DNA from: Candidatus Doudnabacteria bacterium
GTDB lineage: Bacteria; Patescibacteriota; JAQUNI01
Length of the DNA: 64,000 nt
NCBI GenBank assembly: GCA_041644975.1
Contig: JBAZQX010000001.1
Span: 39,274-103,273 of the forward strand
Reading direction: 5' to 3'
The notes below the pieces were generated by a model. That model did not search any database and was not told the origin of the DNA. It saw only the letters and a list, made by a program, of their open reading frames with translations. Position numbers and translations under genes: made by a program. This document shows positions 3,311 to 62,475 of this stretch, in pieces (position 1 is the stretch's first letter; every line of letters begins with the position of its first letter).

Positions 3311-3409
3311 AATTGCCAGATTTCGTAGCGAAAAATTATTTCGCAAAAGGTCTTATATTTTTATTGTTGATATTAATTATTCTAGCAGAGAAAGAGAGGA
3401 AGATAAATA

Positions 3410-3440
3410 TTGACAAAATATGAATTATGTTGTTTAAAAT
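3410..3440 (+). promoter_or_regulatory. candidate sigma70-like promoter (TTGACA, 17-19 nt spacer, TAAAAT) inside the long divergent intergenic region
   Basis: TTGACA lies at ~3410-3415 and TAAAAT at ~3435-3440. This is the only long (490 nt) spacer at the strand switch between scpB (-) and the glycan operon (+). Confidence 0.25.
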
Positions 3441-3518
3441 GTTAATTTACCTCATTAGAGAAAGTTCATCTCGTTACGAATTCATTTGTAACGGGATGGT
3501 CATCACCACTTAAAGCGA

Positions 3519-3581
3519 GAGAACCGTTAGCCCCTGTTGGAAATAAATTTTTAAACGGGGTTAGAAAATGAGGTTCTCTAA
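3519..3581 (+). other. long imperfect stem-loop (agagaacc...ggttctct outer stem, cccctgtt/aacgggg inner stem); a possible structured RNA or regulatory element
   Basis: The inverted repeats are visible in the sequence. It sits ~100 nt downstream of the candidate promoter and is followed by a T-run at ~3595-3600. Confidence 0.3.
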
Positions 3582-3602
3582 TGGGGTTTATTTGCTTTTT
3601 TA

Positions 3603-3733
3603 GCTAATTTATGGCACAATGTGGAATCTCGTAGTTAGTAATTAGTAATCAGCAATAGAGGTCAATCCGCCGCGAAGCGGCGAAAGTTACTGAGATTACC
3701 GGTTGCTAGTTACCAATTACCAGTTACTATTTT
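3603..3733. repeat. AT-rich inverted tandem repeats (agtaattagtaatcag ... ctagttaccaattaccagttact) flanking a GC hairpin ccgccgcGAAgcggcg
   Basis: Direct reading. The same gtaatcagtaat unit recurs at 9953-9975. Confidence 0.6.
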
Positions 3734-5182
3734 ATGTTCTCCGAACTCAAAAAATTATTCAAGCATTCGGGTATTTATGCGGTTGGTGCGACTGCACAGG
3801 TCGCACTTTCTTTTTTGTTAATTCCTTTTTATACGCGATATTTGAGTCAAGCAGACTATGGACGTTTGGAAATTCTACAAACCCTTTTAAAAGTTTTGTT
3901 GTTTTTAATCCCTTTAGGATTGCCTTCGGCAATTTTAAAGTGTTATCACCGCGATGCCAAAAGCCAGACCGAGCGTAGAATTCTCACGAGCACGGCCTTC
4001 TTTTCCGTTCTTGTGGCGGGGTTGTTGCAGTCTTTGATCTTGCTTTTTTTTGTGCATCCTTTGGGGCAGTTTCTGATTAAAATAAATTTTGGTTTATTGA
4101 TTTATACCGTGCTTGCCACTTCCCTTTTTGCTGCTCTACTGGAATTAGAACTTTCTTTTTTGCGCGCAGAAGAGCGATCTCGCTCCTATACCGTGATTTT
4201 TTTATTACGTTTTATTCTAACTTTGGGAATCACCATATATCTCGTAGTGGGCCTCAAATGGGGTCTTTTTGGCGCTCTTTTGGGTAATTTAGTGGCCCAA
4301 ATTTTCACCTTCCTTACTTTCTTGCCATATCTCAAAAACTATGTTAAAATTAGCTATTCTAAGTTTGCCTTGACAAAATTGTTATCTTTTGGTCTAGCCA
4401 TTTTGCCTGCCTCAATTGCGATGTGGGTTATGGATCTGTCTGATCGTTATTTTTTAAGTCATTTCGGCACTTTGGAGATGGTGGGTGTTTATTCGGTGGG
4501 TTATCGTATTGGTTTTATTTTGGAGTTTGTTTTAGTCATCCCTTTTCAGCTTGCTTGGCCTTCTTTTTCCTTTCGGATTGCCAAACACAAAAATCATCAG
4601 CAGATTTACGCACGCACTTTAACCTATTTTTTCTTCATTGGTATATTTAGCTTTTTAGTTTTATCCTTCTTTGCCCCGGAAATCGTGAAGATTATTGTAC
4701 CAAAGAATTACGCGAGCGCCGCGTTAATTGTTCCCCTTGTCGCTTTGGCTTATGTGTTTTATGGGATGCATTTTGTGGTGGCGCCTGGTATTCATCTAAG
4801 AGGGAAAACAAAATATTATCCCCTGGTGATTGTTTTTCCCGCGGCTTTAAATATTTTTTTAAATTATTTGCTTATTCCTATTTATGGAATGTGGGGCGCT
4901 GCCGAAGCGACCTTGATTGCTTTTATTTTCGTTTTTATCCTGACCTATTTTGTTTCTAACCATTTTTATCCCGTGCGCTACGAATGGAAGAGATTATTGA
5001 AAATTGCGATAACAGGCTTAGCGGTTTTTGGTTTTTCCGTGCTTTATCCTATGTCCCATGCTACGATCGCAGCGATATTGATTAAAATTGGGTTATTAAT
5101 TTTATTTTTAATCTTGCTTTGGGGTGAAAGATTTTTTGAGAAAGAAGAGAGAGAAAAAATAAAAGAATTTCTCAAGCTGTAA
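3734..5182 (+). CDS. polysaccharide/oligosaccharide flippase (Wzx-like, MOP/PST superfamily)
   Basis: The 482-aa protein has ~12-14 predicted TM helices and sits as the first gene of a glycan operon. The composition is typical of Wzx. Confidence 0.55.
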   Translation: MFSELKKLFKHSGIYAVGATAQVALSFLLIPFYTRYLSQADYGRLEILQTLLKVLLFLIPLGLPSAILKCYHRDAKSQTERRILTSTAFFSVLVAGLLQSLILLFFVHPLGQFLIKINFGLLIYTVLATSLFAALLELELSFLRAEERSRSYTVIFLLRFILTLGITIYLVVGLKWGLFGALLGNLVAQIFTFLTFLPYLKNYVKISYSKFALTKLLSFGLAILPASIAMWVMDLSDRYFLSHFGTLEMVGVYSVGYRIGFILEFVLVIPFQLAWPSFSFRIAKHKNHQQIYARTLTYFFFIGIFSFLVLSFFAPEIVKIIVPKNYASAALIVPLVALAYVFYGMHFVVAPGIHLRGKTKYYPLVIVFPAALNIFLNYLLIPIYGMWGAAEATLIAFIFVFILTYFVSNHFYPVRYEWKRLLKIAITGLAVFGFSVLYPMSHATIAAILIKIGLLILFLILLWGERFFEKEEREKIKEFLKL

Positions 5183-7784: not shown

Positions 7785-8743
7785 AAAAGAGCATTCTGAT
7801 TACCGGCAGCGAGGGTTTTGTCGGCTCGCATCTGGTGGACTGGATACTGAAAAATAAAAATGATTATGAGGTTCACGGTATCCGTCATTGGTATCCGCGC
7901 CACACACCCATTTTGCATTTGAATCCTCATGCCATCTATCATAGTTGCGATATTCGGAATATTGAAGAGTTATTTAAAATTTTAAAAAGGGTGAGGCCGG
8001 TTAAAGTTTTCCATTTAGCAGCCCAAAGTTTTGTCCCTCTCTCTTGGGTTTCTCCCGCTGAAACCTTGGAGACCAATATCGTTGGGGAAGCAAATTTATT
8101 TGAGGCAGTGCGTCGGGCGGGCATTGATCCTGTAATCCAGATTGCGGGATCCAGCGAGGAATATGGCTTAGTCAAGAAAAATGAGGTGCCGGTTTCGGAA
8201 ACAAACCCTCTGCGTCCCCTTTCTCCCTACGCCGTGAGCAAGATTGGTCAAGATTTTTTGGGTTATCAATATTTCAAATCCTACGGTCTGAAAATTATCC
8301 GCACCCGCGCCTTTAATCACACGGGTCCGCGCCGTGGCGAGGTCTTTGCGACCAGCGATTTTTCCAAACAAATTGCCGAGATTGAAAAAGGGAAAAAAGA
8401 AGCCGTGCTTCATGTTGGTAATCTAGATGCGGTGCGCGACTTTACGGATGTCAGAGATGTGGTCAACGCCTACTGGTTAGCCACTGAAAAATGCAAACCT
8501 GGCGAGGTATATAACATAGGCTCGGGCAAGGGTTGCAAGATTGGCGATATGTTAAACATCCTGCTTGGGATGAGCCGGAAGAAGATTAGAGTGGAACAGG
8601 AACCGGAAAGGATGCGGCCTTCGGATGTCCCGGTTTTAATCTGCGACGCCCGAAAATTCCGCCAAGCCACGGGTTGGCGCCCCACTATTCCTTTTGAAAA
8701 AACCTTAAGGGATCTATTGAATTATTGGCGAGAACGGGTTTAA
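7748..8743 (+). CDS. GDP-mannose 4,6-dehydratase family short-chain dehydrogenase (Gmd/Rmd-like). The start may be the internal Met at ~7781.
   Basis: It has the ILITGSEGFVGSHL Rossmann motif, PYAVSK (YxxxK), and AFNHTGPRRGEVF...NLDAVRDFTDVRDVV, which closely matches Gmd (FNHESPRRG...RDWG.A.DYV). Confidence 0.7.
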   Translation: MVKKPKKSAPKMKKSILITGSEGFVGSHLVDWILKNKNDYEVHGIRHWYPRHTPILHLNPHAIYHSCDIRNIEELFKILKRVRPVKVFHLAAQSFVPLSWVSPAETLETNIVGEANLFEAVRRAGIDPVIQIAGSSEEYGLVKKNEVPVSETNPLRPLSPYAVSKIGQDFLGYQYFKSYGLKIIRTRAFNHTGPRRGEVFATSDFSKQIAEIEKGKKEAVLHVGNLDAVRDFTDVRDVVNAYWLATEKCKPGEVYNIGSGKGCKIGDMLNILLGMSRKKIRVEQEPERMRPSDVPVLICDARKFRQATGWRPTIPFEKTLRDLLNYWRERV

Positions 8744-8755
8744 TCTATCGTTTGA

Positions 8756-9952
8756 TTGCTTAATTGTTCAATTATTAAATTACCTATGCGCATCCTTTTT
8801 ATTACGCGCAAGCATCCCCCTACTATTGGTGGTATGCAGAACCTGTCCTATAACCTTATTCAAAATTTTCTGAAGCAAGGCAGAGAAAGGGGCGACCAGA
8901 TAGAGACAATTATTCTTAACAAGAGTCAGTGGCATTTATTTTGGTGGTTTCCTTATGCTTTATTCTTAACTTTGGTTAAAGCAAGGACAGTGGATATTGT
9001 TCATTTAGGCGATCCTGTCATTTTTTTAATTGGTTTTTTAGCGCGCGTGTTTTACCATAAAGCCGTCGCGGTAACGATTCATGGTTTGGATGTAACCTTT
9101 AATCTCTTTTTATACCAGTGGTATTTAAAACTTTTTGGTCGAAAGTTTGATCGTTATATTTGCATTTCCAGCTATGCCCGGGAAGAAGCGCGAAAGGTAG
9201 GTTTTTCTCCTTGCGTGGTGATTCCTGTTGGCGTGGACAGCAAGAAGTGCAAAGTGCCTGCCCGCCATCGCTTCGCCCGCCCGCAACGCCTTGCGGCTAG
9301 CATGGCGGGCGCGGCTTCAGGCGAGGCGGGCGGGCAAAGTGCAAAGTGCAAAGTTTTGGAAAAACATTTTTTACAGAAACATTTTTTGCCAATTGCTAGT
9401 TTTAAGTTATTAACCGTAGGGCGGTTGGTAAAACGTAAAGGAGTATTTTGGTTTATTCAAGAAGTTATGCCATGTTTACCCAAAGAGATTACTTATTTAG
9501 TAGTGGGAGAAGGGCCGGAACGTGAGAGAATTAAAATCTTGATTCAAGAGAGAGGTTTAGAGGAAAGAGTTTATCTCTTAGGTAAAGTTTCCGAAGAGGA
9601 TTTAAAAACAGTTTATAGCCTCGCTGATTTGTTTATTATGCCTAATATTAAGGTCCAAGGGGATGTTGAAGGGTTTGGACTTGTGGCTGTGGAAGCGGCT
9701 CAAAATGGTCTACCTGTCATTGCCGCGGGTATTGAAGGCATCCGTGATGCGGTGGTTTCGGGACGTAATGGTATTTTGGTGGAGTCAGAAAACCCTGATG
9801 CTTTTCGGAAGCAGATCTTGGAGTTCTTAAGGAACCAGGAATACAGAAAGAGTTTTGGTTATCAAGCCGCGCAATTCACGATGGAAACCTATGATTGGCA
9901 AATAATCGCCAAGCGGTATTACGAGGAATTTTTAAGGGTAATTAGTAGTTAG
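8756..9952 (+). CDS. GT4-family (GT-B) glycosyltransferase carrying an in-frame GC-rich insertion. The likely start is the Met at ~8786.
   Basis: It has VIPVGVD ... VGRLVKRKG ... EGFGLVAVEAAQNGLPVIA (EX7E). There is a ~30-aa GC-encoded insert between the GVD and VGRL motifs. Confidence 0.75.
   Translation: MLNCSIIKLPMRILFITRKHPPTIGGMQNLSYNLIQNFLKQGRERGDQIETIILNKSQWHLFWWFPYALFLTLVKARTVDIVHLGDPVIFLIGFLARVFYHKAVAVTIHGLDVTFNLFLYQWYLKLFGRKFDRYICISSYAREEARKVGFSPCVVIPVGVDSKKCKVPARHRFARPQRLAASMAGAASGEAGGQSAKCKVLEKHFLQKHFLPIASFKLLTVGRLVKRKGVFWFIQEVMPCLPKEITYLVVGEGPERERIKILIQERGLEERVYLLGKVSEEDLKTVYSLADLFIMPNIKVQGDVEGFGLVAVEAAQNGLPVIAAGIEGIRDAVVSGRNGILVESENPDAFRKQILEFLRNQEYRKSFGYQAAQFTMETYDWQIIAKRYYEEFLRVISS
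9258..9334. repeat. GC-rich palindromic mini-element, family A (core CCTGCCCGCCATCGCTTCGC...CTTCAGGCGAGGCGGGCGGG), lying inside a coding sequence
   Basis: It is >75% GC in an AT-rich gene. It is flanked by the direct repeat caaagtgc (~9250-9257 and ~9335-9342). The core reappears at ~62324-62363. Confidence 0.7.
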
Positions 9953-9971
9953 TAATCAGTAATCAGTAACT

Positions 9972-14631: not shown

Positions 14632-14667
14632 TCGTTAATCTACCCATACCCTAGAGTATTAAATCAT

Positions 14668-14705
14668 TGTTCAATTGTTCCATTGTTTCATTGTTATGCT
14701 AGTTG
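14668..14705. repeat. tandem cattgtt(c/t)a repeats (cattgttcaattgttccattgtttcattgtt); the same unit occurs at 1600-1640
   Basis: Direct reading. Confidence 0.6.
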
Positions 14706-16041: not shown

Positions 16042-17205
16042 ATGCTGATCGGCATTGATGCCTCGCGTGGTTTCTTAAAAAAACGCACGGGAGTGGAAGA
16101 ATATTCTTATCAAATCGTGCAGGCGTTAACAAAAGTTGATTCTCAAAATCAATATATTTTGTATTTAAACGGCCAAGAGAACAAGGAAGTGGCGCGAGGG
16201 ATTGCGTGGCCTTCAAATTTTAAATTTAAAAATATCCCTTTTCCAAGGCTTTGGGTGCATCTAGCTTTGTGTTTAATGGCTTGGCGGGATAAGCTTGATG
16301 TTTTGTTTATCCCGGCGCAGGCAATGCCAATTTTTTACCCGCGGAAAACTGTTGTTACTTTGCATGGTTTGGAATATGAGCATTACCCAGAAAGTTATTC
16401 TGTTTTTCGGCGTTTTTACCTCCGTTTTACAACGAAATTTAGCTTAAAGCATGCGGCGAAGATTATTGCTGTTTCGGAGAACACAGAAAAGGATTTGATT
16501 AAAATGTATGGTGGAGATGCGGAGAGAATTAAAGTGGTCTATCATGGTTTTAATATTATATTTCCCTCCCCCTCCATCTCCCCCTCGGGCAGGGGGAGTG
16601 ATAGCCCTCCCCTTTCCAAGGGGAGGTTGGGAGGGGTTCTGGAAATTAAAGACGGGGAAAATGATCAGTTATTTATTTTAACCATTGGCCGTTTGGAAGC
16701 GCGCAAGAATATTGTTAATTTAATTCGCGCTTTTGAACTGATAAAAAGAGAAGGCTGGACCGGGAAGTTGGTTTTAGTCGGTCAGCAGGGTTATGGTTAC
16801 ACAGAGATTAAGAGAGCGATACAAGATTCAGCCTATCAAGAAGATATTATTGAGAAAGGCTTTGTGAGTGAAGAAGAAAAATGGCAGATTTTGCAATCCG
16901 CCACGGCATTTGTTTTTCCTTCTTTTTATGAGGGTTTTGGCATGCCGCTTTTAGAAGCGTTCGCCGCGGATGTGCCGGTTGCGGTATCCAACACTTCTTC
17001 TTTGCCTGAAATTGGAGGAGACGCTTGCGTTTATTTTAATCCCGATAATGTTGACGATATAACGCGAAAGATAAGAGAGGTTTTAGAGAATAAAAACCTG
17101 CGTCAAAATTTGATCCAAAAGGGTCAAATGCGTTTAGCTAATTTTGGCTGGCAAAAGTGCGCTCTAGAGACCTTATTAATATTAGAAATAAGTCACCACA
17201 CTTAG
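16042..17205 (+). CDS. GT4-family glycosyltransferase carrying an in-frame GC-rich insertion
   Basis: It has VVYHGFN ... ILTIGRLEARKN ... EGFGMPLLEAFAADVPV (EX7E). An extra ~25 aa (FPSPSISPSGRGSDSPPLSKGRLGGV) is encoded by a GC-rich palindromic element. Confidence 0.75.
   Translation: MLIGIDASRGFLKKRTGVEEYSYQIVQALTKVDSQNQYILYLNGQENKEVARGIAWPSNFKFKNIPFPRLWVHLALCLMAWRDKLDVLFIPAQAMPIFYPRKTVVTLHGLEYEHYPESYSVFRRFYLRFTTKFSLKHAAKIIAVSENTEKDLIKMYGGDAERIKVVYHGFNIIFPSPSISPSGRGSDSPPLSKGRLGGVLEIKDGENDQLFILTIGRLEARKNIVNLIRAFELIKREGWTGKLVLVGQQGYGYTEIKRAIQDSAYQEDIIEKGFVSEEEKWQILQSATAFVFPSFYEGFGMPLLEAFAADVPVAVSNTSSLPEIGGDACVYFNPDNVDDITRKIREVLENKNLRQNLIQKGQMRLANFGWQKCALETLLILEISHHT
16563..16638. repeat. GC-rich palindromic mini-element, family B (CTCCCCC-N-GGGGGAG hairpins; contains gggcagggggagtg), lying inside a coding sequence
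   Basis: The hairpins are ctccccctcgggcagggggag and cctcccctttccaaggggagg. A 14-mer is shared with ~62414-62427. Confidence 0.7.
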
Positions 17206-17227
17206 CATAAAGTTTTTTTACTTTATA

Positions 17228-18382
17228 CTATTGAATAGTTTCCTGAAACAGAGTTTCTAGCTGCCCAACCATTTTATTCCAATCATACTTCGCCGCTTCT
17301 TTTTTGCCCCTCTCACCCATTTTTTGGCGCAAGGCGGGATCGCTAAGCAGTTTATTGATGTAATAGGCTGTTTTTTTGTAATCACCTACAGGGGTTAAAA
17401 ATCCCGCCTCATTATTCGGCACTAGATATGGAACTGCGGAGTGATTAGTGGACACAATTGGTAGTCCCGCGGCCATCGCTTCGGCAAGGACAATACCAAA
17501 AGCCTCATATTTGGTTGGCAGGCAGAAGAGAGTGGCGTTTTGATAAGCGGAGTGTAGATCTTCCCTTTTTAATTTTCCGAGCCAAAGAAGTTTATCTTGG
17601 ACATTATATTTGATGGCTAGATGAACGAATGTTTCTTTATCGGCAAAGTCAGTGCCGGCAATGGCGACAATGGTATTGGGATGTTTTTTTAAGACTTCAG
17701 GCAGGGCTTTGATTAAAATATCAACCCCCTTGCCATAGCAGATGCGCCCGGCAAAAAAGATAATATTTTCATCTTGTATATTATATTGCTCAAAAACGTT
17801 GTAAGGAATTTTTTGCTTCAGTGCTGATTCAATGCCTGGCGGGATAATGATAATCTTTTTGGGTTTGTAATCTTTTAAGATTAACGCCTTTTCAAATTCT
17901 GAAATTGCGATGACGCAGTCCGCAGCCATAGTTAAGCTGCCGAAAATCTTGCGATAGCAAAACCATTTTTTTGCCTCGCGGCTCTCTAGGTAAAAATAAG
18001 GGTGCAAGATAAATGGCACTCTTTTTATTTTGGAAAGAAGCCAGGCAATATCCGCGGAATAGTAATAAAAATTGTGGGTGTAGATTAAATCTAGGTTTTT
18101 TGTCTGAAGCGCCGCTTTCAGCATACCCTGAAAATAGGGGTAAGGAAACTTGCCCTGGTATTTTGCTCTAAAGCGGCGGACATAGGGAGGGTCATTTTGA
18201 TATTCTTCCGCGGTTAAATACACAGGCGGAATACTATGGCTTCTAAGATTAGAGGTCAAAACTTGGACATTGTGGCCTTTTTTGCTCAAACCTTCAGTGG
18301 ATTGATAAATCATCTCTTCCGCGCCGCCTGGAGCGGGAGGATAGCGGAGACAAGTGGTTAAGATATTGAGTTTCCTTGACAT
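17228..18382 (-). CDS. GT4-family glycosyltransferase
   Basis: It has EAFGIVLAEAMAAGLPIVST (EX7E) and a GT-B layout. Confidence 0.75.
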   Translation of the reverse strand: MSRKLNILTTCLRYPPAPGGAEEMIYQSTEGLSKKGHNVQVLTSNLRSHSIPPVYLTAEEYQNDPPYVRRFRAKYQGKFPYPYFQGMLKAALQTKNLDLIYTHNFYYYSADIAWLLSKIKRVPFILHPYFYLESREAKKWFCYRKIFGSLTMAADCVIAISEFEKALILKDYKPKKIIIIPPGIESALKQKIPYNVFEQYNIQDENIIFFAGRICYGKGVDILIKALPEVLKKHPNTIVAIAGTDFADKETFVHLAIKYNVQDKLLWLGKLKREDLHSAYQNATLFCLPTKYEAFGIVLAEAMAAGLPIVSTNHSAVPYLVPNNEAGFLTPVGDYKKTAYYINKLLSDPALRQKMGERGKKEAAKYDWNKMVGQLETLFQETIQ

Positions 18383-18540
18383 AGATAATGAGATCGTCGT
18401 TGCGAGGAGGAAGGCGAAGCCGAAGCCTGACGACGAAGCAATCTCCTAAAAGAGTAAAGGTTTGTCATCCAAAATTATTTAATTTTATGAGATTGCCGCG
18501 TCGCTCTTTGGGGTCGCTCCTCGCTAATAGACGAGAAGAA
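18383..18540. repeat. GC-rich patch: hairpin cgtcgt-tgcgaggaggaaggcgaagccgaagcctga-cgacg plus a CTCCTCGCTAATAGACGAGAAG copy of the cysN-upstream arm
   Basis: Direct reading. The second part lies within the 3' end of the 18465..19340 CDS and encodes LLARSD. Confidence 0.55.
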
Positions 18541-19340
18541 TTTTGCCAATATTTGATACGGGTAACTGATTCATAAAAAGTTCCAAACAGCGCATAGACG
18601 AAGCCGTGGATGCCATCTTTATATCCTTGATGCCGAAAATAGCGCGAGATAAAAAAGCGCAAAGGGCGGTAAATGAAAAACCAAGCTAAAGACCAAGGAT
18701 TATGCAAAGTCATTTTAATCTCGCGGCCATAACGGTCTTTTTTTGTTTTTACCATTTCCTTTGCGTCAATTTCCGTGTAGCGGATAAATTTTTCAAAATA
18801 GTGATTAACAGTATCAAAAGAATAATGCAAATAGTGATTTTTTAAAAATCCTGAATCTCGATCTTCACGCTTAACAATTCTTCCCTCTTTGTCCGCCACT
18901 TGTTCGTGAACATCACGCACCCAATGGCTGCCATTATTACGGAATAGTCTTAGGTGTGGGCAGGGATACCAAGCTCCATGGCGCAAAGGGTGTCCTAAAA
19001 AATAGGTTTGAAAAGGAATCCAATAGAAATTTTGGGCAGGGTTTTTCAAGATTGCTAAGATTTCAGTTTTAAGCTTTGGGGTTATCCTTTCATCAGGATC
19101 AATCTGTAAAATCCAGTCGCCCGTTGTGTATTGCAAGCCAAAATTCCTTTGTTTGGCGTAAGAATTGTCCCAGCGGCGCGTATAGATTTTATCTGTATAC
19201 GCTTTGACGATTTTTTGTGTCCCATCATCGCTTTCCGCGTCCACAATTATAATTTCATCCGTCCATTGGACGGATTTTAAGCATTCTTTCAGCTTATCGG
19301 CATTATTATAAGTGATGATGAGAGCGGAAATTTTAGGCAT
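18465..19340 (-). CDS. GT2-family glycosyltransferase
   Basis: It has ISALIITYNNADKLKECL, IIIVDAESDDGT and QIDPDE motifs. Confidence 0.7.
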   Translation of the reverse strand: MPKISALIITYNNADKLKECLKSVQWTDEIIIVDAESDDGTQKIVKAYTDKIYTRRWDNSYAKQRNFGLQYTTGDWILQIDPDERITPKLKTEILAILKNPAQNFYWIPFQTYFLGHPLRHGAWYPCPHLRLFRNNGSHWVRDVHEQVADKEGRIVKREDRDSGFLKNHYLHYSFDTVNHYFEKFIRYTEIDAKEMVKTKKDRYGREIKMTLHNPWSLAWFFIYRPLRFFISRYFRHQGYKDGIHGFVYALFGTFYESVTRIKYWQNSSRLLARSDPKERRGNLIKLNNFG

Positions 19341-19425
19341 AGTTGACTCCTCCCCTGATAAGGGGAGGACGGGAGGGGTTATTCGGAAGAGATAACCCCC
19401 TCTAACTCCCCCTTATCAGGGGGAG
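19341..19425. repeat. GC-rich palindromic mini-element, family B, at a gene junction (ctcccctgataaggggag ... gggaggggttattcggaagagataaccccctc ... ctcccccttatcagggggag)
   Basis: It is nested inverted repeats. It supplies the GGAGGAG Shine-Dalgarno sequence 7 nt upstream of the 18465..19340 start and encodes the last ~15 codons and the stop of 19379..20122. Confidence 0.7.
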
Positions 19426-20122
19426 AACTCAATCTTTTTAAAATATACTCCCCTATCACCACTAGGGGCGCAATCCAGAGGTTAAGTTCAGTCAGCTTTT
19501 GTAAGTGTTCCTCAAACGCCTTTGGAGTCACGGTGAAGCGATAATCCGTTTGGCGGCTCGCGACTAAATGATAGGATTCAATCAGCCAGAGATTTTTCCT
19601 AGCCGCTCTCTTTGCCTCTTTATTTAAATCGTTCCAATCCGTTTTTTGATTAGGCACAAAGGATTTGAGGTTGAAAAAGTCAATCGGCGGGATATGATTT
19701 AATTCTTCTTCCACGCCTCTGCCAGCAAAATAATATTTTTTAGCCGTTTCAATTACTCTTTTATCAAAAGCGCCTCCTGGGTAAACAATGGTTTTAGCTT
19801 TCAGAATTTCCTGGGATTCCTTGAGCTCTTTTTCTAGATCCGCATCGGAAGCGTTTTTTAAATTCACGTGGTTAATGCTGTGGCTGGCGATTTCGTGGCC
19901 GAGGGCTTTAATCTTCTTGGCAATTTCCAAGGAAGCCGCGGGTATTTTTTCAGTTTTTTCAATTGCTCGCGGATTAGTCGCGAAAGCAAAAGTGGCTTTG
20001 ATGTTATATTTTTTTAGGATAGGCAGAACATTCACCAATGTCTCTTTATAACCGTCATCAAAAACAAGGGAGCACGCCCCCCGTTTTTGAGAATTTGATT
20101 TTTGAGAAAAGATTTTAAACAT
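19379..20122 (-). CDS. polysaccharide deacetylase (CE4 / NodB homology domain)
   Basis: It has LVFDDGYKETL, HSINHVNL and the NodB motif pattern. The C-terminal tail PPDKGELEGVISSE is encoded by the GC repeat. Confidence 0.7.
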   Translation of the reverse strand: MFKIFSQKSNSQKRGACSLVFDDGYKETLVNVLPILKKYNIKATFAFATNPRAIEKTEKIPAASLEIAKKIKALGHEIASHSINHVNLKNASDADLEKELKESQEILKAKTIVYPGGAFDKRVIETAKKYYFAGRGVEEELNHIPPIDFFNLKSFVPNQKTDWNDLNKEAKRAARKNLWLIESYHLVASRQTDYRFTVTPKAFEEHLQKLTELNLWIAPLVVIGEYILKRLSSPPDKGELEGVISSE

Positions 20123-21165
20123 TATACTAGTTTTAATTTACGGAAGAGTTCTTTATTGCGGCTTACCCAATCCGCAAGTTTTTTTACGCCTTGGCTCGTT
20201 GAGATTTGCGGCTCCCAGCCGAATTCTTTTTTCGCCTTGCGGATGTCGGAAACGTACACCGGCTGATCGCCGGGCCGCCAGGGCGCGAAGCTATATTGGA
20301 TGTCTTTATCAAGCATTTTTTTGAGATAGCTAATAAGCTCTAAAAGGGACATCGTATTTTCTGGTCCGCCGCCTATATTGTAGATTTTACCCGCGGTTTT
20401 ATCAATCATCTTGGTCGCCATCACAAAGGCTTGAATCAAATCTTCCACATACAAAACATCGCGAATCTGCTTGCCGTCGCCGTAAATCGTAATGGGACAC
20501 CCCAAGCTTGCCGCGATCGTAAACCAAGCCACCCACCCTTGATCTTCAATGCCGAACTGCCTTTTGCCGTAGATGCAACTTTGGCGGAAGACTACGGCGC
20601 GCAAGCCATAGATGCGGCTGTAATCACGGACATATTGATCAGCTGCTCCCTTGGAGCAGCCATAAGGAGAATGAAAATCCAAAAGGCGATTTTCAGGGAT
20701 CCCTAAAGGCAGATTTTTATATTCATGGCGATCGCCTTTGTCGGCAATTTCAATATCTTCCATACCGCCGTAAACCTTGTTCGTAGAGGCAAAGATGAGG
20801 ATGGGATTATTCTTGGCGTGGCGGACTGCCTCTAGGACGTTAAAAGTCCCCATGGCGTTAATCATAAAGTCCTCATAAGGGTTATTGACCGAACAGGTGA
20901 CCGCCACTTGCGCGGCGAGATGGTAAACTGTGTCCACTTTTTGAATGAGTTCCAAAAGTTTACTCTTGTCTATGCGGATATCCCCGACAACCATCTCCAA
21001 TTTCTTTCCTTTGTGTTTTTTCTCCAGCCACTTTAGATTTTCAATAGTGCCTTTGCGTGAGAGATTATCAAAAATAATTACCTCCGCATTATTTTGCAAG
21101 AGATAGTCCGCGATATTCGCACCAATAAATCCGGCGCCGCCGATGACTAAAAATTTATTTAACAT
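20122..21165 (-). CDS. NAD-dependent sugar-nucleotide epimerase/dehydratase (SDR; CDP-paratose 2-epimerase-like)
   Basis: It has VIGGAGFIGANIADYL (Rossmann) and YGCSKGAADQY (YxxxK). Confidence 0.65.
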   Translation of the reverse strand: MLNKFLVIGGAGFIGANIADYLLQNNAEVIIFDNLSRKGTIENLKWLEKKHKGKKLEMVVGDIRIDKSKLLELIQKVDTVYHLAAQVAVTCSVNNPYEDFMINAMGTFNVLEAVRHAKNNPILIFASTNKVYGGMEDIEIADKGDRHEYKNLPLGIPENRLLDFHSPYGCSKGAADQYVRDYSRIYGLRAVVFRQSCIYGKRQFGIEDQGWVAWFTIAASLGCPITIYGDGKQIRDVLYVEDLIQAFVMATKMIDKTAGKIYNIGGGPENTMSLLELISYLKKMLDKDIQYSFAPWRPGDQPVYVSDIRKAKKEFGWEPQISTSQGVKKLADWVSRNKELFRKLKLV

Positions 21166-21239
21166 TGATTTCCCCCCTCCACTAAATAATTATTTCTTGT
21201 AACTTATAACTTGTTACAGATTTCAAATTGCAGGAATTG

Positions 21240-23147
21240 CTATTTAAAATATTTGGTCAGCTTTTCTAGGGCGATAAAGAAACCCCGCCCTTCGCGTTGA
21301 TGACCCCGCCAAATTTCCGGAATCCAACCGTATTGATAGTCTTTAAATATTTTTTGGATTTTAGTCCAATCTATGTCCCCTTCCCCGATTTGCAATCCTT
21401 CCTCATCGGTGCCGTAGGCGTCAGAGATGTGCAGTTCGCGGACATAGGGTTTAATCCTTTGGAGTGCAGAATAAAAATCCTCCCCGATGAGATTGTAATA
21501 TAATTTTGCATGTGAAAGATCAAGAGTGCAATTAATGCGAGTCCGTTTGCAGAATTCCCGAATTTCATCCAGATCCACGAAGATGTTGTCTACCCATTGG
21601 CCGCCAAAATACCAAGGCCGGGGCGGCAGATTTTCAGGTAATAATTCCACGCCGCGACTATCTATTTTTTTTAGCGAATTTTCAAGGTTTTTCCAAAGCG
21701 TCCTTCGGCTTTTAATAGGGTCAATACTCATTCCGCCGGGATGAAAAACGATTTTGGGCTTAACAGGGACAAAATATTTTTTCATTTCCCTTGCTCGCTC
21801 TACGGTTTTTCGCATTATGGCAATGGCTTCGTCGCGTAATTCTTTTTCCGGGGAGCAAAGATCATTGATGGAGCGGAAATGATATTCGGGAGCGTGGATA
21901 TAAAGCGCGGCAGGATATTTTTGATTGGGTTTAAATTTGTATTCTAAATCTTTATCCGTAAAATGAAATTCTACCATTTTGGGATTCAAGGCCATCATTT
22001 GATCTAAATTGTGAAAACGTACTTTTAGCCCCCAGAAGGATTGAAAGTTTTTACTGAAATTAGATTGTTTCACTTTATGGATGTCGTTTTCTAAAAAGAG
22101 ATCATCTTTTTTGAAGTTTTTTTGCGCTCGTTTGCCAATTAGTGTATCCAGCAGTTGAGGCGACAAACCTTTGCCTGGGCTCTTAACGGCAATCATTTTG
22201 CGATGGATTATTTCCCCTTTTTTTATTTCTTCCGCGGCGACTAGGCTTTTTCCCAGAACCTCGCGGTTTAAGATTTCACCACGGCTCATATATTTTTTCC
22301 CGTCGCCCAAAGCTTGTTCCGTATAGCGGATATCGCGCACGAGGCGCTTAAAATCTTGGGCTTCTAGACTAGCGGCGTGATCTGGACCTTTCATAGAACG
22401 ATCCAGGGTTAAATGGCGTTCAATAATACTGGCCCCTAGTGTTGCGGCAACAATAGACATTGAAATACCCAGCTCATGACCGGAATAACCGACCGGGACA
22501 TTAAATTTTTGACGTAGGGTTTCTATAAAGCGCAGGTTTAATTTATCCCAGGGCGCAGGGTAAGTGGAAGAGCAATGCAGAAGCGCGAATTGGACCTTTT
22601 TCTTTTCCAAGAATCCTACTGTCTTTTCAATTTCATCTAAATAAGCCATTCCCGTTGCCACAATCATCGGTTTTTTGGTTGCCGCCACTTTTTCCAGAAG
22701 CGCAAAATTAGTAAGATCAGGGGACCCGATTTTGTATGCTGGGACCCGTAACTTTTCTAAAAATTCAGCGCTCTTAAGATCAAATGGCGTGCATAAAAAA
22801 GTAATTCCTTTCCGATCACAATATTTCTTTAAGAAAAAGAAATCTTCCTCCGTGAGTTCAAATTCGCGCAGCAAAGGAATCATGTATTGGAAATTTTGCT
22901 CGCCTAGGTTGGGGTTATCAAGTATTTCCTCGGTATAAATATGTTTCAGGTTTCTTTTTTGAAATTTAACCGCATCGGCCCCCGCACTAATCGCGACATC
23001 AACAAGTTGTTTGGCGATTTGCACCGAGCCATTATGATTGACCCCAATTTCGGCGACGATATAGCAAGGGTGTAGAGTGCCGATTTTTTTATTATCTATG
23101 GTAATCTCTTTGATCATAATATACTTCAAATCATAAATTCTAAGCAC
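21240..23147 (-). CDS. NeuB-family nonulosonic acid (sialic/legionaminic/pseudaminic) synthase fused to a SAF domain and a C-terminal xylose-isomerase-like TIM-barrel domain
   Basis: The N-terminus GTLHPCYIVAEIGVNHNGSVQIAKQLVDVAISAGADAVKFQKR is a NeuB signature. The SAF-like LVAAEEIKKGEII follows. The C-terminal ~280 aa has VEFHF / ELLPEN / LDLSHA / LHISD patterns of AP-endonuclease-2-type TIM barrels. The track start is a GTG; an internal ATG lies at ~23117. Confidence 0.7.
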   Translation of the reverse strand: MLRIYDLKYIMIKEITIDNKKIGTLHPCYIVAEIGVNHNGSVQIAKQLVDVAISAGADAVKFQKRNLKHIYTEEILDNPNLGEQNFQYMIPLLREFELTEEDFFFLKKYCDRKGITFLCTPFDLKSAEFLEKLRVPAYKIGSPDLTNFALLEKVAATKKPMIVATGMAYLDEIEKTVGFLEKKKVQFALLHCSSTYPAPWDKLNLRFIETLRQKFNVPVGYSGHELGISMSIVAATLGASIIERHLTLDRSMKGPDHAASLEAQDFKRLVRDIRYTEQALGDGKKYMSRGEILNREVLGKSLVAAEEIKKGEIIHRKMIAVKSPGKGLSPQLLDTLIGKRAQKNFKKDDLFLENDIHKVKQSNFSKNFQSFWGLKVRFHNLDQMMALNPKMVEFHFTDKDLEYKFKPNQKYPAALYIHAPEYHFRSINDLCSPEKELRDEAIAIMRKTVERAREMKKYFVPVKPKIVFHPGGMSIDPIKSRRTLWKNLENSLKKIDSRGVELLPENLPPRPWYFGGQWVDNIFVDLDEIREFCKRTRINCTLDLSHAKLYYNLIGEDFYSALQRIKPYVRELHISDAYGTDEEGLQIGEGDIDWTKIQKIFKDYQYGWIPEIWRGHQREGRGFFIALEKLTKYFK

Positions 23148-23149
23148 TA

Positions 23150-23260
23150 AATCCTAAACAATATCTAAATTCAGAATCTAAAATTCAAAACTATTTTGAA
23201 TTTAGAGCTTTAGATTTTGAATTTGTTTAGAATTTAGGATTTAGAATTTAGGGTTTCTTT
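23150..23260. repeat. intergenic palindrome of tandem ctaaat/tctaaa units (aatcctaaacaatatctaaattcagaatctaaaattcaaa ... tttgaatttagagctttagattttgaatttgtttagaatttaggattt)
   Basis: Direct reading. Confidence 0.65.
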
Positions 23261-62247: not shown

Positions 62248-62475
62248 CTTAACCTTAAATTACGAAATTCACTTTGTCTATTAGCGAGCGATTTTTTCCT
62301 CCCCTTGACCTGCGGGAGGTTAGCCTGCCCGCCATCGCTTCGCTTCAGGCGAGGCGGGCGGGGAAGGGTCTAATAAATGACTATTCTCCCTCCCCCTCTT
62401 ATCTCCCCGCTCAGGGCAGGGGGAGTGTAATCAAGTTTTTCGCAATGACGACATATTTCGTAATTCATAGTATCT
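62248..62475. repeat. composite repeat region: a copy of the cysN 5' flank (cttaaccttaaattacgaaattcactttgtctattagcgagcg ... tttcgtaattcatag) whose interior is occupied by GC-rich elements (a hairpin at ~62298-62319, the family A core at ~62324-62363 and a family B segment at ~62386-62427)
   Basis: Direct comparison with 31155-31255. The terminal inverted motifs are ATTACGAAA and TTTCGTAAT. Confidence 0.6.

Follow-up and report, generated by a model that had tools for sequence, protein, structure and literature searches.

Inverted triplex-motif repeats at a gene junction of a Candidatus Doudnabacteria genome and their association with a subfamily of DUF559 nucleases

What kind of element occupies the junction between two co-oriented genes in a Candidatus Doudnabacteria genome, how did it come to lie there, and does it serve the genes that it joins? 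The stretch of DNA analyzed here (64,000 nucleotides in full, referred to as the window) carries on its minus strand a CE4 deacetylase gene and a GT2 gene, both part of a long cluster of sugar-modifying genes, and a first-pass annotation had placed a G+C-rich nested palindrome between them. The explanation that best accounts for the locus as a whole, and that is considered probable, combines four parts: the palindrome is a pair of triplex motifs, the pair replaced the former junction, the GGAGG ahead of the GT2 start is a by-product of the repeat, and the repeat belongs to a family associated with DUF559 genes. The features from which the argument starts are the two genes and the outer edge of the palindrome.

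19379-20122, minus strand: CE4 deacetylase gene (Polysacc_deac_1)
18465-19340, minus strand: GT2 gene (Glycos_transf_2)
19426-19432: outer, imperfect extension of the palindrome, 6-7 nt, TTGAGTT on the gene strand, pairing with AGTCAAC at 19341-19347 (from fold and sequence)

The palindrome was found where it had been described and with the sequence described, as a nested G+C palindrome that occupies the CE4/GT2 junction from 19341 to 19432. On the gene strand (minus), the order of parts is CTCCCCCTgataAGGGGGAG (19425-19406), TTA, GAGGGGGTT (19402-19394), a centre of 13-14 nt, AACCCCTCC, CGT, CCTCCCCTtatcAGGGGAGG (19368-19349), AGTCAACT, and the ATG at 19340. Written out on the same strand from 19432 to 19341, the element reads TTGAGTT, CTCCCCCTgataAGGGGGAG, TTA, GAGGGGGTTAT, ctcttccg, AATAACCCCTCC, CGT, CCTCCCCTtatcAGGGGAGG, AGTCAACT, followed by the GT2 ATG. 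The RNA fold of the palindrome reaches -52.9 kcal/mol, compared with -34 +/- 3.7 kcal/mol for dinucleotide shuffles (z = -5.1; none of 200 shuffles was equal), and the DNA fold consists of three hairpins (z = -4.4).

The two halves of the palindrome each match the published pattern of an intrastrand-triplex motif (C-stem, N3-6, G-stem, N3, and mirror G-stem) and are inverted relative to each other, and are thus identified as triplex motifs. As judged from its sequence, the junction element comprises two BoxC/PIT/TM intrastrand-triplex motifs that face each other as an inverted, convergent pair, with the following parts.

19394-19425, minus strand: triplex-motif unit A, with stem CTCCCCCT, loop GATA, purine stem AAGGGGGAG, loop TTA, and mirror stem GAGGGGGTT
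19349-19379, plus strand, inverted relative to unit A: triplex-motif unit B, CCTCCCCT-GATA-AGGGGAGG-ACG-GGAGGGGT
19380-19393: central slot of 13-14 nt between the two third strands, filled by a DUF559 ORF in full-length relatives

Unit A contains the exact 21-mer core (AAGGGGGAGTTAGAGGGGGTT), an 8-bp stem (19425-19406) closed by a 4-nt loop, and a third strand that mirrors the purine stem at 8 of 8 positions across a 3-nt spacer. Unit B contains the 21-mer core with two mismatches and a 9-bp stem (19348-19369), also with a 4-nt loop, and its third strand mirrors the stem at 8 of 9 positions by script, or at 8 of 8 by eye when ACG is taken as the second loop. The unit B hairpin corresponds to what had been called the terminal hairpin adjoining the GT2 start, and the "nested palindrome" is this convergent pair, in which the two third strands together with TTAT/ATAA form the central hairpin. 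The first-pass annotation was therefore correct in seeing a real palindromic repeat, but missed that each half is a known BoxC/PIT/triplex motif.

Earlier work has documented repeats of this kind in E. coli and other Proteobacteria and in cyanobacteria; here they occur in a genome of the Patescibacteria (CPR), a phylum without an earlier description of them. The BoxC/PIT/TM motifs have reportedly also been treated by Hoyne and Maher in 2000. In E. coli, the triplex motif has the form CCCTCNCCC-N3-6-GGGNGAGGG-N3-GGGNGAGGG, with a second loop of TTA (type A) or CCG (type B), and five loci contain inverted pairs, each composed of one type A and one type B unit (PMC4666352). The same study counted 3610 TMECO copies across 262 genomes of Proteobacteria, noted that G+C-rich motifs are numerous in cyanobacteria and Neisseria, found TM loci to be hypervariable among strains, and reported that the triplex forms in vitro, with none detected in vivo (PMC4666352).

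The likeness of the window units to these motifs extends to the predicted order of pyrimidine stem, 3-6 nt loop, purine stem, 3-nt loop, and mirror purine stem, to the TTA second loop in one junction unit (unit A, as in the E. coli "type A"), to the inverted "palindromic" pairs, which seem to combine two unit types, and to a multi-copy, G+C-rich repeat in a lower-GC genome whose loci are hypervariable between close relatives. The differences lie in the stem, which is CTCCCCCT/AGGGGGAG in the window and CCCTCNCCC/GGGNGAGGG in E. coli, in the second loop of unit B, which is ACG and not the CCG that type B brings to an A + B pair, and in the CPR host. Further, the window copies are translated and extend into coding sequence or are contained in it, whereas the copies of E. 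coli K-12 are reported to be always intergenic.

It should be noted that the junction element is not a one-off. Its core occurs in at least 119 genomic stretches from many phyla, and a second pair is present in the window itself.

16567-16638: second locus, a divergent pair of complete triplex motifs, with units at 16598-16567 (minus strand) and 16606-16638 (plus strand), found by fuzzy search

This second pair is translated in frame, as the inter-domain linker of a GT4 gene (16042-17205), and the third strands of its units mirror their stems at 8 of 8 and 9 of 9 positions. Four complete triplex-motif units are thus found in 64 kb, compared with a chance expectation of 0.03 matches to the terminal hairpin motif in a window of this size. 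Orthologous GT4 genes carry differing arrays at the equivalent linker position, and related units were also found in the syntenic loci of three relatives (L001, L005, and L006).

The history of the junction can be read from the end of the CE4 gene, for which two further features are needed.

19382-19432, minus strand: repeat-encoded C-terminal extension of CE4, LSSPPDKGELEGVISSE, absent from orthologs
19379-19381, minus strand: CE4 stop codon TAA, at the edge of the unit B third strand

The CE4 reading frame enters the palindrome and continues for 16-17 codons before it ends at the TAA (19381-19379), and because this codon lies at the edge of the unit B third strand, the stop of CE4 is supplied by the element. 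Unit A encodes the tail residues PPDKGELEGV, within which KGELEGV is the translation of the canonical 21-mer core. The window protein accordingly ends in "...EYILKR-LSSPPDKGELEGVISSE", a tail found in none of the 17 aligned homologs. The closest of these, P0001 (90% identity, 233 aa) and P0004 (79% identity, 232 aa), end in "...EYILEKTGK" or "...EYILKKTEK" and terminate 14-15 residues before the window protein, and the tail of P0002 (86% identity) comes from another array. The suggestion that the CE4 tail is repeat-derived is supported by each of these comparisons.

The spacer between the two genes has a corresponding history. In the syntenic loci L001 (encoding P0001; GCA_028717685.1) and L006 (encoding P0004), CE4 and GT2 are separated by an AT-rich spacer of ~135 nt that contains no G+C palindrome and no Shine-Dalgarno sequence. 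In L005 (encoding P0002), the spacer has been replaced by a different G+C palindrome array, with its own repeat-encoded tail, LPPPFQGGDGGGSEN. When the four loci are aligned, homology ends three codons before the ancestral stop and returns 8-13 nt ahead of the conserved ATGCCTAAAATTTC start, from which it follows that the element replaced the stop and the whole spacer. The earlier description of an element at a gene junction thus stands insofar as the element fills the junction, but the event was not a simple insertion. As these alignments are read, the repeat array replaced the last three codons of CE4, the stop, and an AT-rich spacer of ~135 nt present in a recent ancestor, a replacement that entails the deletion of ~145 nt.

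DNA identity of the flanking genes is 89-95% among the window, L001, and L005 and ~76-80% to L006, and these values across four lineages indicate that the AT-rich state is ancestral and the event recent, apparently postdating the split from lineages that are 5-10% divergent in DNA. The window, L001, and L005 have similar flanking genes and junctions that are unrelated or rearranged; as the three are nearly equidistant and the signals of individual genes conflict, one insertion is indistinguishable from two. Rapid turnover at both the CE4-GT2 junction and the GT4 linker fits the reported instability of triplex-motif loci.

The junction offers a clear natural case in which a stop codon and an intergenic spacer were overwritten by a dispersed repeat that also made a new protein tail; the addition of peptide segments by small repeats is already known from the RPEs and other MITEs. 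The Rickettsia palindromic elements (RPE) and intragenic MITEs (PMC10969869) are alike in that in-frame palindromic repeats are tolerated and give rise to new peptide segments and C-termini. The RPEs differ in being unrelated in sequence and host, and in having neither a triplex architecture nor a known associated endonuclease.

The distribution of the repeat outside of the window was assessed with a 21-base pattern derived from it (AAGGGGGAG, NNN, GAGGGGGTT) that was searched in a species-representative genome collection. At least 119 genome stretches contain the pattern, compared with ~17 expected by chance according to our own estimate. The matches listed span more than 10 phyla, with hosts among the Patescibacteria, Omnitrophota, Gallionellaceae, Planctomycetota, Cyanobacteria, Chloroflexi, Nitrospirota, Bacteroidota, and others. 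Nearly all of these matches possess the complementary arm, which was outside of the query, and the NNN positions are mostly TTA, TTG, CTG, CTA, or CCG. Among the 27 convergent pairs in the pattern-selected loci, the window slot of 13 nt is the shortest spacer; the centre measures 13-79 nt in 23 cases, and precisely the pairs that hold a DUF559 ORF have a centre of 369 or 380 nt. Convergent pairs with a centre of 1.3 kb (L047 and L051) were rejected as cargo carriers, as they enclose ordinary genes.

The proteins encoded near the repeats were surveyed by clustering, all-against-all, every ORF that is 90 aa or longer in the 119 loci selected by the pattern (2652 ORFs). The only recurrent families are ABC transporters, histidine kinases, LeuRS, and DUF559, and DUF559 is the only one of these that is not a housekeeping family and the only one that is repeat-flanked. 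It is present in 5 of the 119 loci, and in all five, units stand on both sides of the ~115-aa ORF; at one of them, L035, DUF559 and its units are inserted in frame in a DNA methyltransferase gene. For the reverse test, 80 metagenome loci were fetched by DUF559 protein similarity alone. A perfect pyrimidine/purine hairpin lies within 130 nt of DUF559 in 64 of 76 loci upstream (84%, a value that holds for a subfamily and not for all DUF559, as the 80 loci are the closest relatives of queries from unit-bearing loci), in 51 of 74 downstream, and on both sides in 40 of 70. The background, taken from the distal flanks of the same DUF559 contigs, is 0.025 hairpins per 150 nt.

These flanks have a polarity with respect to the ORF. 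On the ORF side, G predominates in the upstream hairpin (0.37 G, 0.12 C) and C in the downstream hairpin (0.36 C, 0.14 G), and a mirror third strand occurs on the ORF side in 52-62% of cases, compared with 21-23% on the outer side. The two flanks of the same locus are mutual inverted repeats at a score of at least 30 in 48% of cases, as opposed to 11% for flanks drawn from different loci, and the window 21-mer, when up to 3 substitutions are allowed, shows a 15-25-fold enrichment near DUF559. In genome sequence, a strong, polarized association of this DUF559 subfamily with inverted triplex motifs is thereby shown.

The association extends to cultured organisms, with units around DUF559 in Pseudanabaena, Picosynechococcus PCC 7002, Synechocystis, Deinococcus, Azospirillum, N. 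gonorrhoeae, and Sinorhizobium. The E. coli gene ycjD has triplex motifs downstream only, together with an upstream hairpin of another kind, and its last codons and stop lie inside a triplex motif. A TMECO between fabI and ycjD is listed without comment in the supplementary table of Holder et al. (PMC4666352), and an independent survey found "DUF559 domain-containing protein" to be 14-fold enriched among genes between inverted repeats (PMC9881135). No paper linking DUF559 with the BoxC/PIT/TM repeats was found in open-access text. The DUF559 profile matches PDB 3HRL (E = 9e-29) and, more weakly, the homing endonuclease I-Bth0305I (3R3P; E = 2e-5), and the context of DUF559 is that of the Vsr-fold and Vsr-like nucleases (PMC3424549, PMC2677866). 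A site with both an empty and an occupied allele was not found; at E. coli sapF-fabI the alternative allele is an unrelated 7.5-kb efflux island. A DUF559 gene is present neither in the 64-kb window nor in the 20-kb loci of its relatives.

A mechanism that would join these observations begins with a full-length cassette in which a hairpin, a G-tail, a ~115-aa DUF559 ORF (Vsr-fold PD-(D/E)XK), a C-tail, and a second hairpin follow one another, and of which the inverted unit pairs would represent an ORF-less form. Based on its centre of 13-14 nt and the lack of a DUF559 ORF in the window, the junction element is classed with the ORF-less form and not with the full cassette. DUF559 would nick or cleave the units, driving their copying, their turnover, and the instability of nearby DNA, and would stand to the triplex motifs as RAYT stands to REP/REPINs, or as a homing endonuclease stands to its empty site. 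ORF-less pairs such as 19341-19432 may derive from DUF559 cassettes or be serviced by them. It is tentatively proposed, then, that DUF559 (YcjD-type, Vsr-fold) endonucleases may have the triplex-motif repeats as their non-autonomous partners, the two together constituting a second REPIN-RAYT-like or homing-type system that is mechanistically distinct and present in more than 10 phyla. Should this be true, the rewriting of gene ends, linkers, and junctions, of which 19341-19432 is an example, would be the work of the ORF-less copies. To our knowledge, a nuclease of 115 aa corresponds to no known type of transposase.

The Vsr-like (EDxHD) homing endonucleases, for example I-Bth0305I (Dassa 2009, PMC2677866; Taylor 2011, PMC3239194), provide one point of comparison. 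The likeness consists of the DUF559 profile finding 3R3P by sequence, of small free-standing nuclease genes placed after hairpins, and of genes interrupted or extended by insertion. The DUF559 loci differ in that no intron or intein context was seen, their flanks are inverted repeats of triplex motifs, and the target and activity of DUF559 are putative.

Alternatively, although this is thought to be somewhat unlikely, there may be no dedicated enzyme, such that the units spread by replication slippage, gene conversion, and recombination at non-B DNA. The DUF559 genes would then merely attract or tolerate units, which could, for example, act as the terminator and leader hairpins of the gene itself, or DUF559 would be a host repair nuclease inserting nearby by chance. 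Holder et al. ascribe TM-linked variability to replication and repair problems, tied no transposase or integrase to TMs, and reported no mobility genes near the TMs of E. coli (PMC4666352). An enzyme-free origin is also compatible with the lack of DUF559 in the 64-kb window, with the 114 of 119 pattern-selected loci in which the units are far from any DUF559, and with the ordinary genes that are also unit-flanked (L047, L051). However, the finding of near-identical 33-nt units in more than 10 phyla is hard to account for unless a defined element has spread horizontally, and the 30-fold enrichment with fixed polarity for one protein family only, the locus-specific matching of flanks, and the presence of DUF559 and units in frame inside a DNA methylase gene (L035) are each difficult to reconcile with passive accumulation.

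The partnership of triplex motifs with DUF559 would, if borne out, supply a function for DUF559. Triplex-motif repeats (E. coli, Neisseria, cyanobacteria) have been linked to genome instability with no enzyme or mode of spread known, and we know of no origin or mobilizing activity put forward for the BoxC/PIT/triplex-motif repeats since the 1990s. The DUF559 link thus offers a new lead, open to testing, on a long-known orphan repeat and a possible clue to how it spreads, and the inclusion of E. coli ycjD in the association makes the question of spread directly testable in model organisms.

The remaining part of the argument concerns the effect of the element on GT2, the start of which is preceded by one further feature.

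19349-19353, minus strand: GGAGG, 8 nt upstream of the GT2 ATG, in the purine arm of the unit B hairpin

The first-pass annotation regarded the element as a mobile or expanding repeat that carries a working Shine-Dalgarno sequence for GT2 in its terminal hairpin; on such a reading, the arrangement would be selected for expression of the operon. The spacing of 8 nt between GGAGG and the ATG is ideal for such a role, and the neighboring epimerase gene has GGAGG before its start both in the window and in L001, which suggests that the anti-SD is probably intact (the 16S anti-SD sequence itself is absent from the 64-kb window). In the full-length cassettes, the G-tail also lies where a DUF559 ribosome-binding site would be, and an SD-like motif (-22 to -4) precedes 42 of 70 DUF559 starts, compared with 10% of random ATGs. 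Even so, selection for a Shine-Dalgarno function at GT2 is unlikely. GGAGG or GAGG occurs upstream of only 3 of the 31 called genes in L001 and L006, and the orthologous GT2 genes have no such motif and an AT-rich leader instead. In both predicted folds, GGAGG is paired within the 9-bp G+C stem, and in the relative L005 it stands 15 nt from the ATG. Further, the motif is intrinsic to the purine arm of every unit whatever the context, coding regions included, so that any gene just downstream of a unit gains one. The pairing, the orthologs without the motif, the low usage, and the purine run common to every unit together weaken the proposed function, and lead us to infer that GGAGG is a by-product of the purine arm and not a selected Shine-Dalgarno sequence.

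The replacement may have affected GT2 in a different manner. GT2 would have lost its AT-rich leader, along with any promoter located there, and would start 8 nt past a structure of -53 kcal/mol. Ribosomes that complete CE4 would open both the 5' hairpin and the central part of the structure and advance as far as the foot of the 3' hairpin, resulting in coupling by unfolding. With the leader lost and the start placed behind a stable structure, we infer that GT2 is most likely co-transcribed with CE4 and dependent on CE4 translation for its own. The junction element thus probably forces CE4 and GT2 into translational dependence.

It is very unlikely that the element is instead a dedicated cis-regulatory RNA of the operon, whether an attenuator, an RNase processing site, or an intercistronic stabilizer. 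A very stable fold between co-oriented genes would suit such a function, but the element is missing in the two closest syntenic lineages and is different in the third. In E. coli, PIT elements are reported to act neither as promoters nor as terminators (literature summarized in PMC4666352). On the gene strand within 19341-19432, there is no U-tract, no T-run after either hairpin, and no terminator prediction, and a promoter and terminator scan of the junction element returned nothing inside; an intrinsic terminator is ruled out, as no U-tract follows the hairpins. Membership in an Rfam family was likewise rejected: searches of the whole window at the gathering threshold and of 16-20.5 kb under permissive settings returned only sub-threshold hairpin look-alikes, among them miRNA precursors and RAGATH-31 at 18 bits, where 71.8 are required.

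The REP/REPIN-RAYT systems, said to have been described by Nunvar (2010), Bertels and Rainey (2011), and Ton-Hoang (2012), are similar to the repeats described here in their short palindromic units, often arranged as inverted doublets, and in a small nuclease-type gene that is repeat-flanked, with many ORF-less copies for each gene-bearing copy. They differ in the enzyme, an HUH Y1 transposase as opposed to the Vsr-fold PD-(D/E)XK nuclease here, while the window units lack a GTAG or CGTC tag, possess a third mirror strand, and have a sequence common to several phyla. That the units are themselves REP/REPINs mobilized by a RAYT (IS200/IS605-type Y1), or a MITE derived from a DDE insertion sequence, is highly improbable despite inverted doublets that fold into long hairpins and are dispersed, mostly intergenic, and at gene ends: the units begin and end with CTCC/GGAG and have neither of the tags that define REPs (PMC3733652), the mirror-repeat third strand is lacking in REPs, the sequence is conserved across phyla where REPINs are lineage-specific, no recurrent transposase family was found in the 119 + 80 loci and no repeat-flanked Y1 (HUH) transposase family among the 2652 ORFs of the 119 loci, and a classical MITE is rejected as the borders show no visible target-site duplication and no direct repeat, ~145 nt were deleted at insertion, and no IS was found.

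The pattern search also returned matches of other kinds. Those in Vibrio (e.g., L024) have no complementary arm, lie in three tandem repeats of ~310 bp, and were treated as a separate or chance resemblance. The 21-mer pattern was also found in 23 viral contigs.

Triplex units (a pyrimidine stem, a loop, a purine stem, 3 nt and a mirror purine stem) accompany DUF559, a family of small Vsr-fold endonucleases, at two loci outside the window.

L035, all 1973 nt of a Paludibacter MAG contig: DNA methylase with a DUF559 domain, one open frame
L063, Nomurabacteria MAG (CPR contig), 726-800, 2857-2920 and 6035/6443: triplex units

The N6_N4 DNA methylase of L035 holds a complete DUF559 domain with the triplex-unit peptides PPDKGELEGV and PPLSGGL… on both sides, and domain and peptides together form an in-frame insertion that is intein-like, but without a splicing domain. 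The units of L063 lie within ftsK and at the recA 3' end, and they also bracket a DUF559 gene; because all of these are found on one contig, gene-bearing and ORF-less copies share one genome.

The E. coli member of DUF559 is ycjD, for which the BL21 locus provides the gene context.

L240, E. coli BL21, 1300-1530: sapF-ycjD-fabI; also L242

In L240, ycjD ends within a triplex motif, its TGA lying in the hairpin loop. Next come a partial tandem copy of the gene's own 3' end with a degenerate motif, and then copy no. 9 of TMECO, the E. coli form of the repeat. Among complete E. coli genomes, about 38% carry a 7.5-kb efflux-pump island in place of the whole ycjD segment, and the boundary of this island is just beyond the triplex motif.

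Matches to the 21-mer core, the search pattern taken from the window, also occur in Vibrio and in viruses.

L024, Vibrio owensii, 3400-4260: tandem array of three ~310-bp repeats, possible relatives of the triplex-motif family

The long hairpin present in every Vibrio repeat has arms that match the core, but the small hairpin is absent. The core is also present in 23 viral contigs from IMG/VR (L209-L231), which could be a vehicle for inter-phylum spread.

Repeats also occur within two glycosyltransferase (GT4) genes of the window.

16567-16638, within GT4 gene 16042..17205, + strand: divergent pair of complete triplex motifs
9254-9343, within GT4 gene 8756..9952, + strand: G+C palindrome GCCTGCCCGCCATCGCTTCG…CAGGCGAGGCGGGCGGGC, distinct from the triplex-motif pair

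The pair is read in frame as …SPSISPSGRGSDSPPLSKGRLGGVLE…, within the linker joining the two GT-B domains. Orthologs in the syntenic relatives L001 and L006, 76-80% identical outside the linker repeat, have other repeat arrays at the same point. The palindrome, with AAAGTGC repeats on either side, is likewise in frame in an inter-domain linker (peptide …KVPARHRFARPQRLAASMAGAASGEAGGQSAKCKV…). It is probably the 'family A' GC-palindrome of the first-pass annotation, and copies or fragments occur at window 62325-62365, at the L005 junction of a further relative and in the L006 GT4 insert.

Across the whole 64-kb window, Rfam gave zero matches at the gathering threshold. The remaining repeats are intergenic or lie upstream of genes.

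62299-62430, between two convergent genes: composite of G+C palindromes
23128-23256, directly upstream of a NeuB-like gene: AT-rich inverted repeat, 63 nt, 73% complementary, 3-nt centre
1594-1632, 8743-8781, 14662-14692, also 2658-2682, 3631-3655, 9945-9969, several intergenic regions: short AT-rich periodic repeats

The composite combines a CCTCCCCTTGACCTGCGGGAGG hairpin with a copy of family A and with a degenerate unit of triplex type, the latter ~80% similar to window 16562-16604. The periodic repeats are of the ATTGTTCAATTGTTC… (8-nt period) and GTAATCAG/GGAATTAG types. A GGAGG/GAGG motif precedes 3 of 31 called genes in L001 and L006, and AT-rich leaders without a Shine-Dalgarno motif characterize the majority of this lineage's genes (L001, L006 and window genes 16042-23117).
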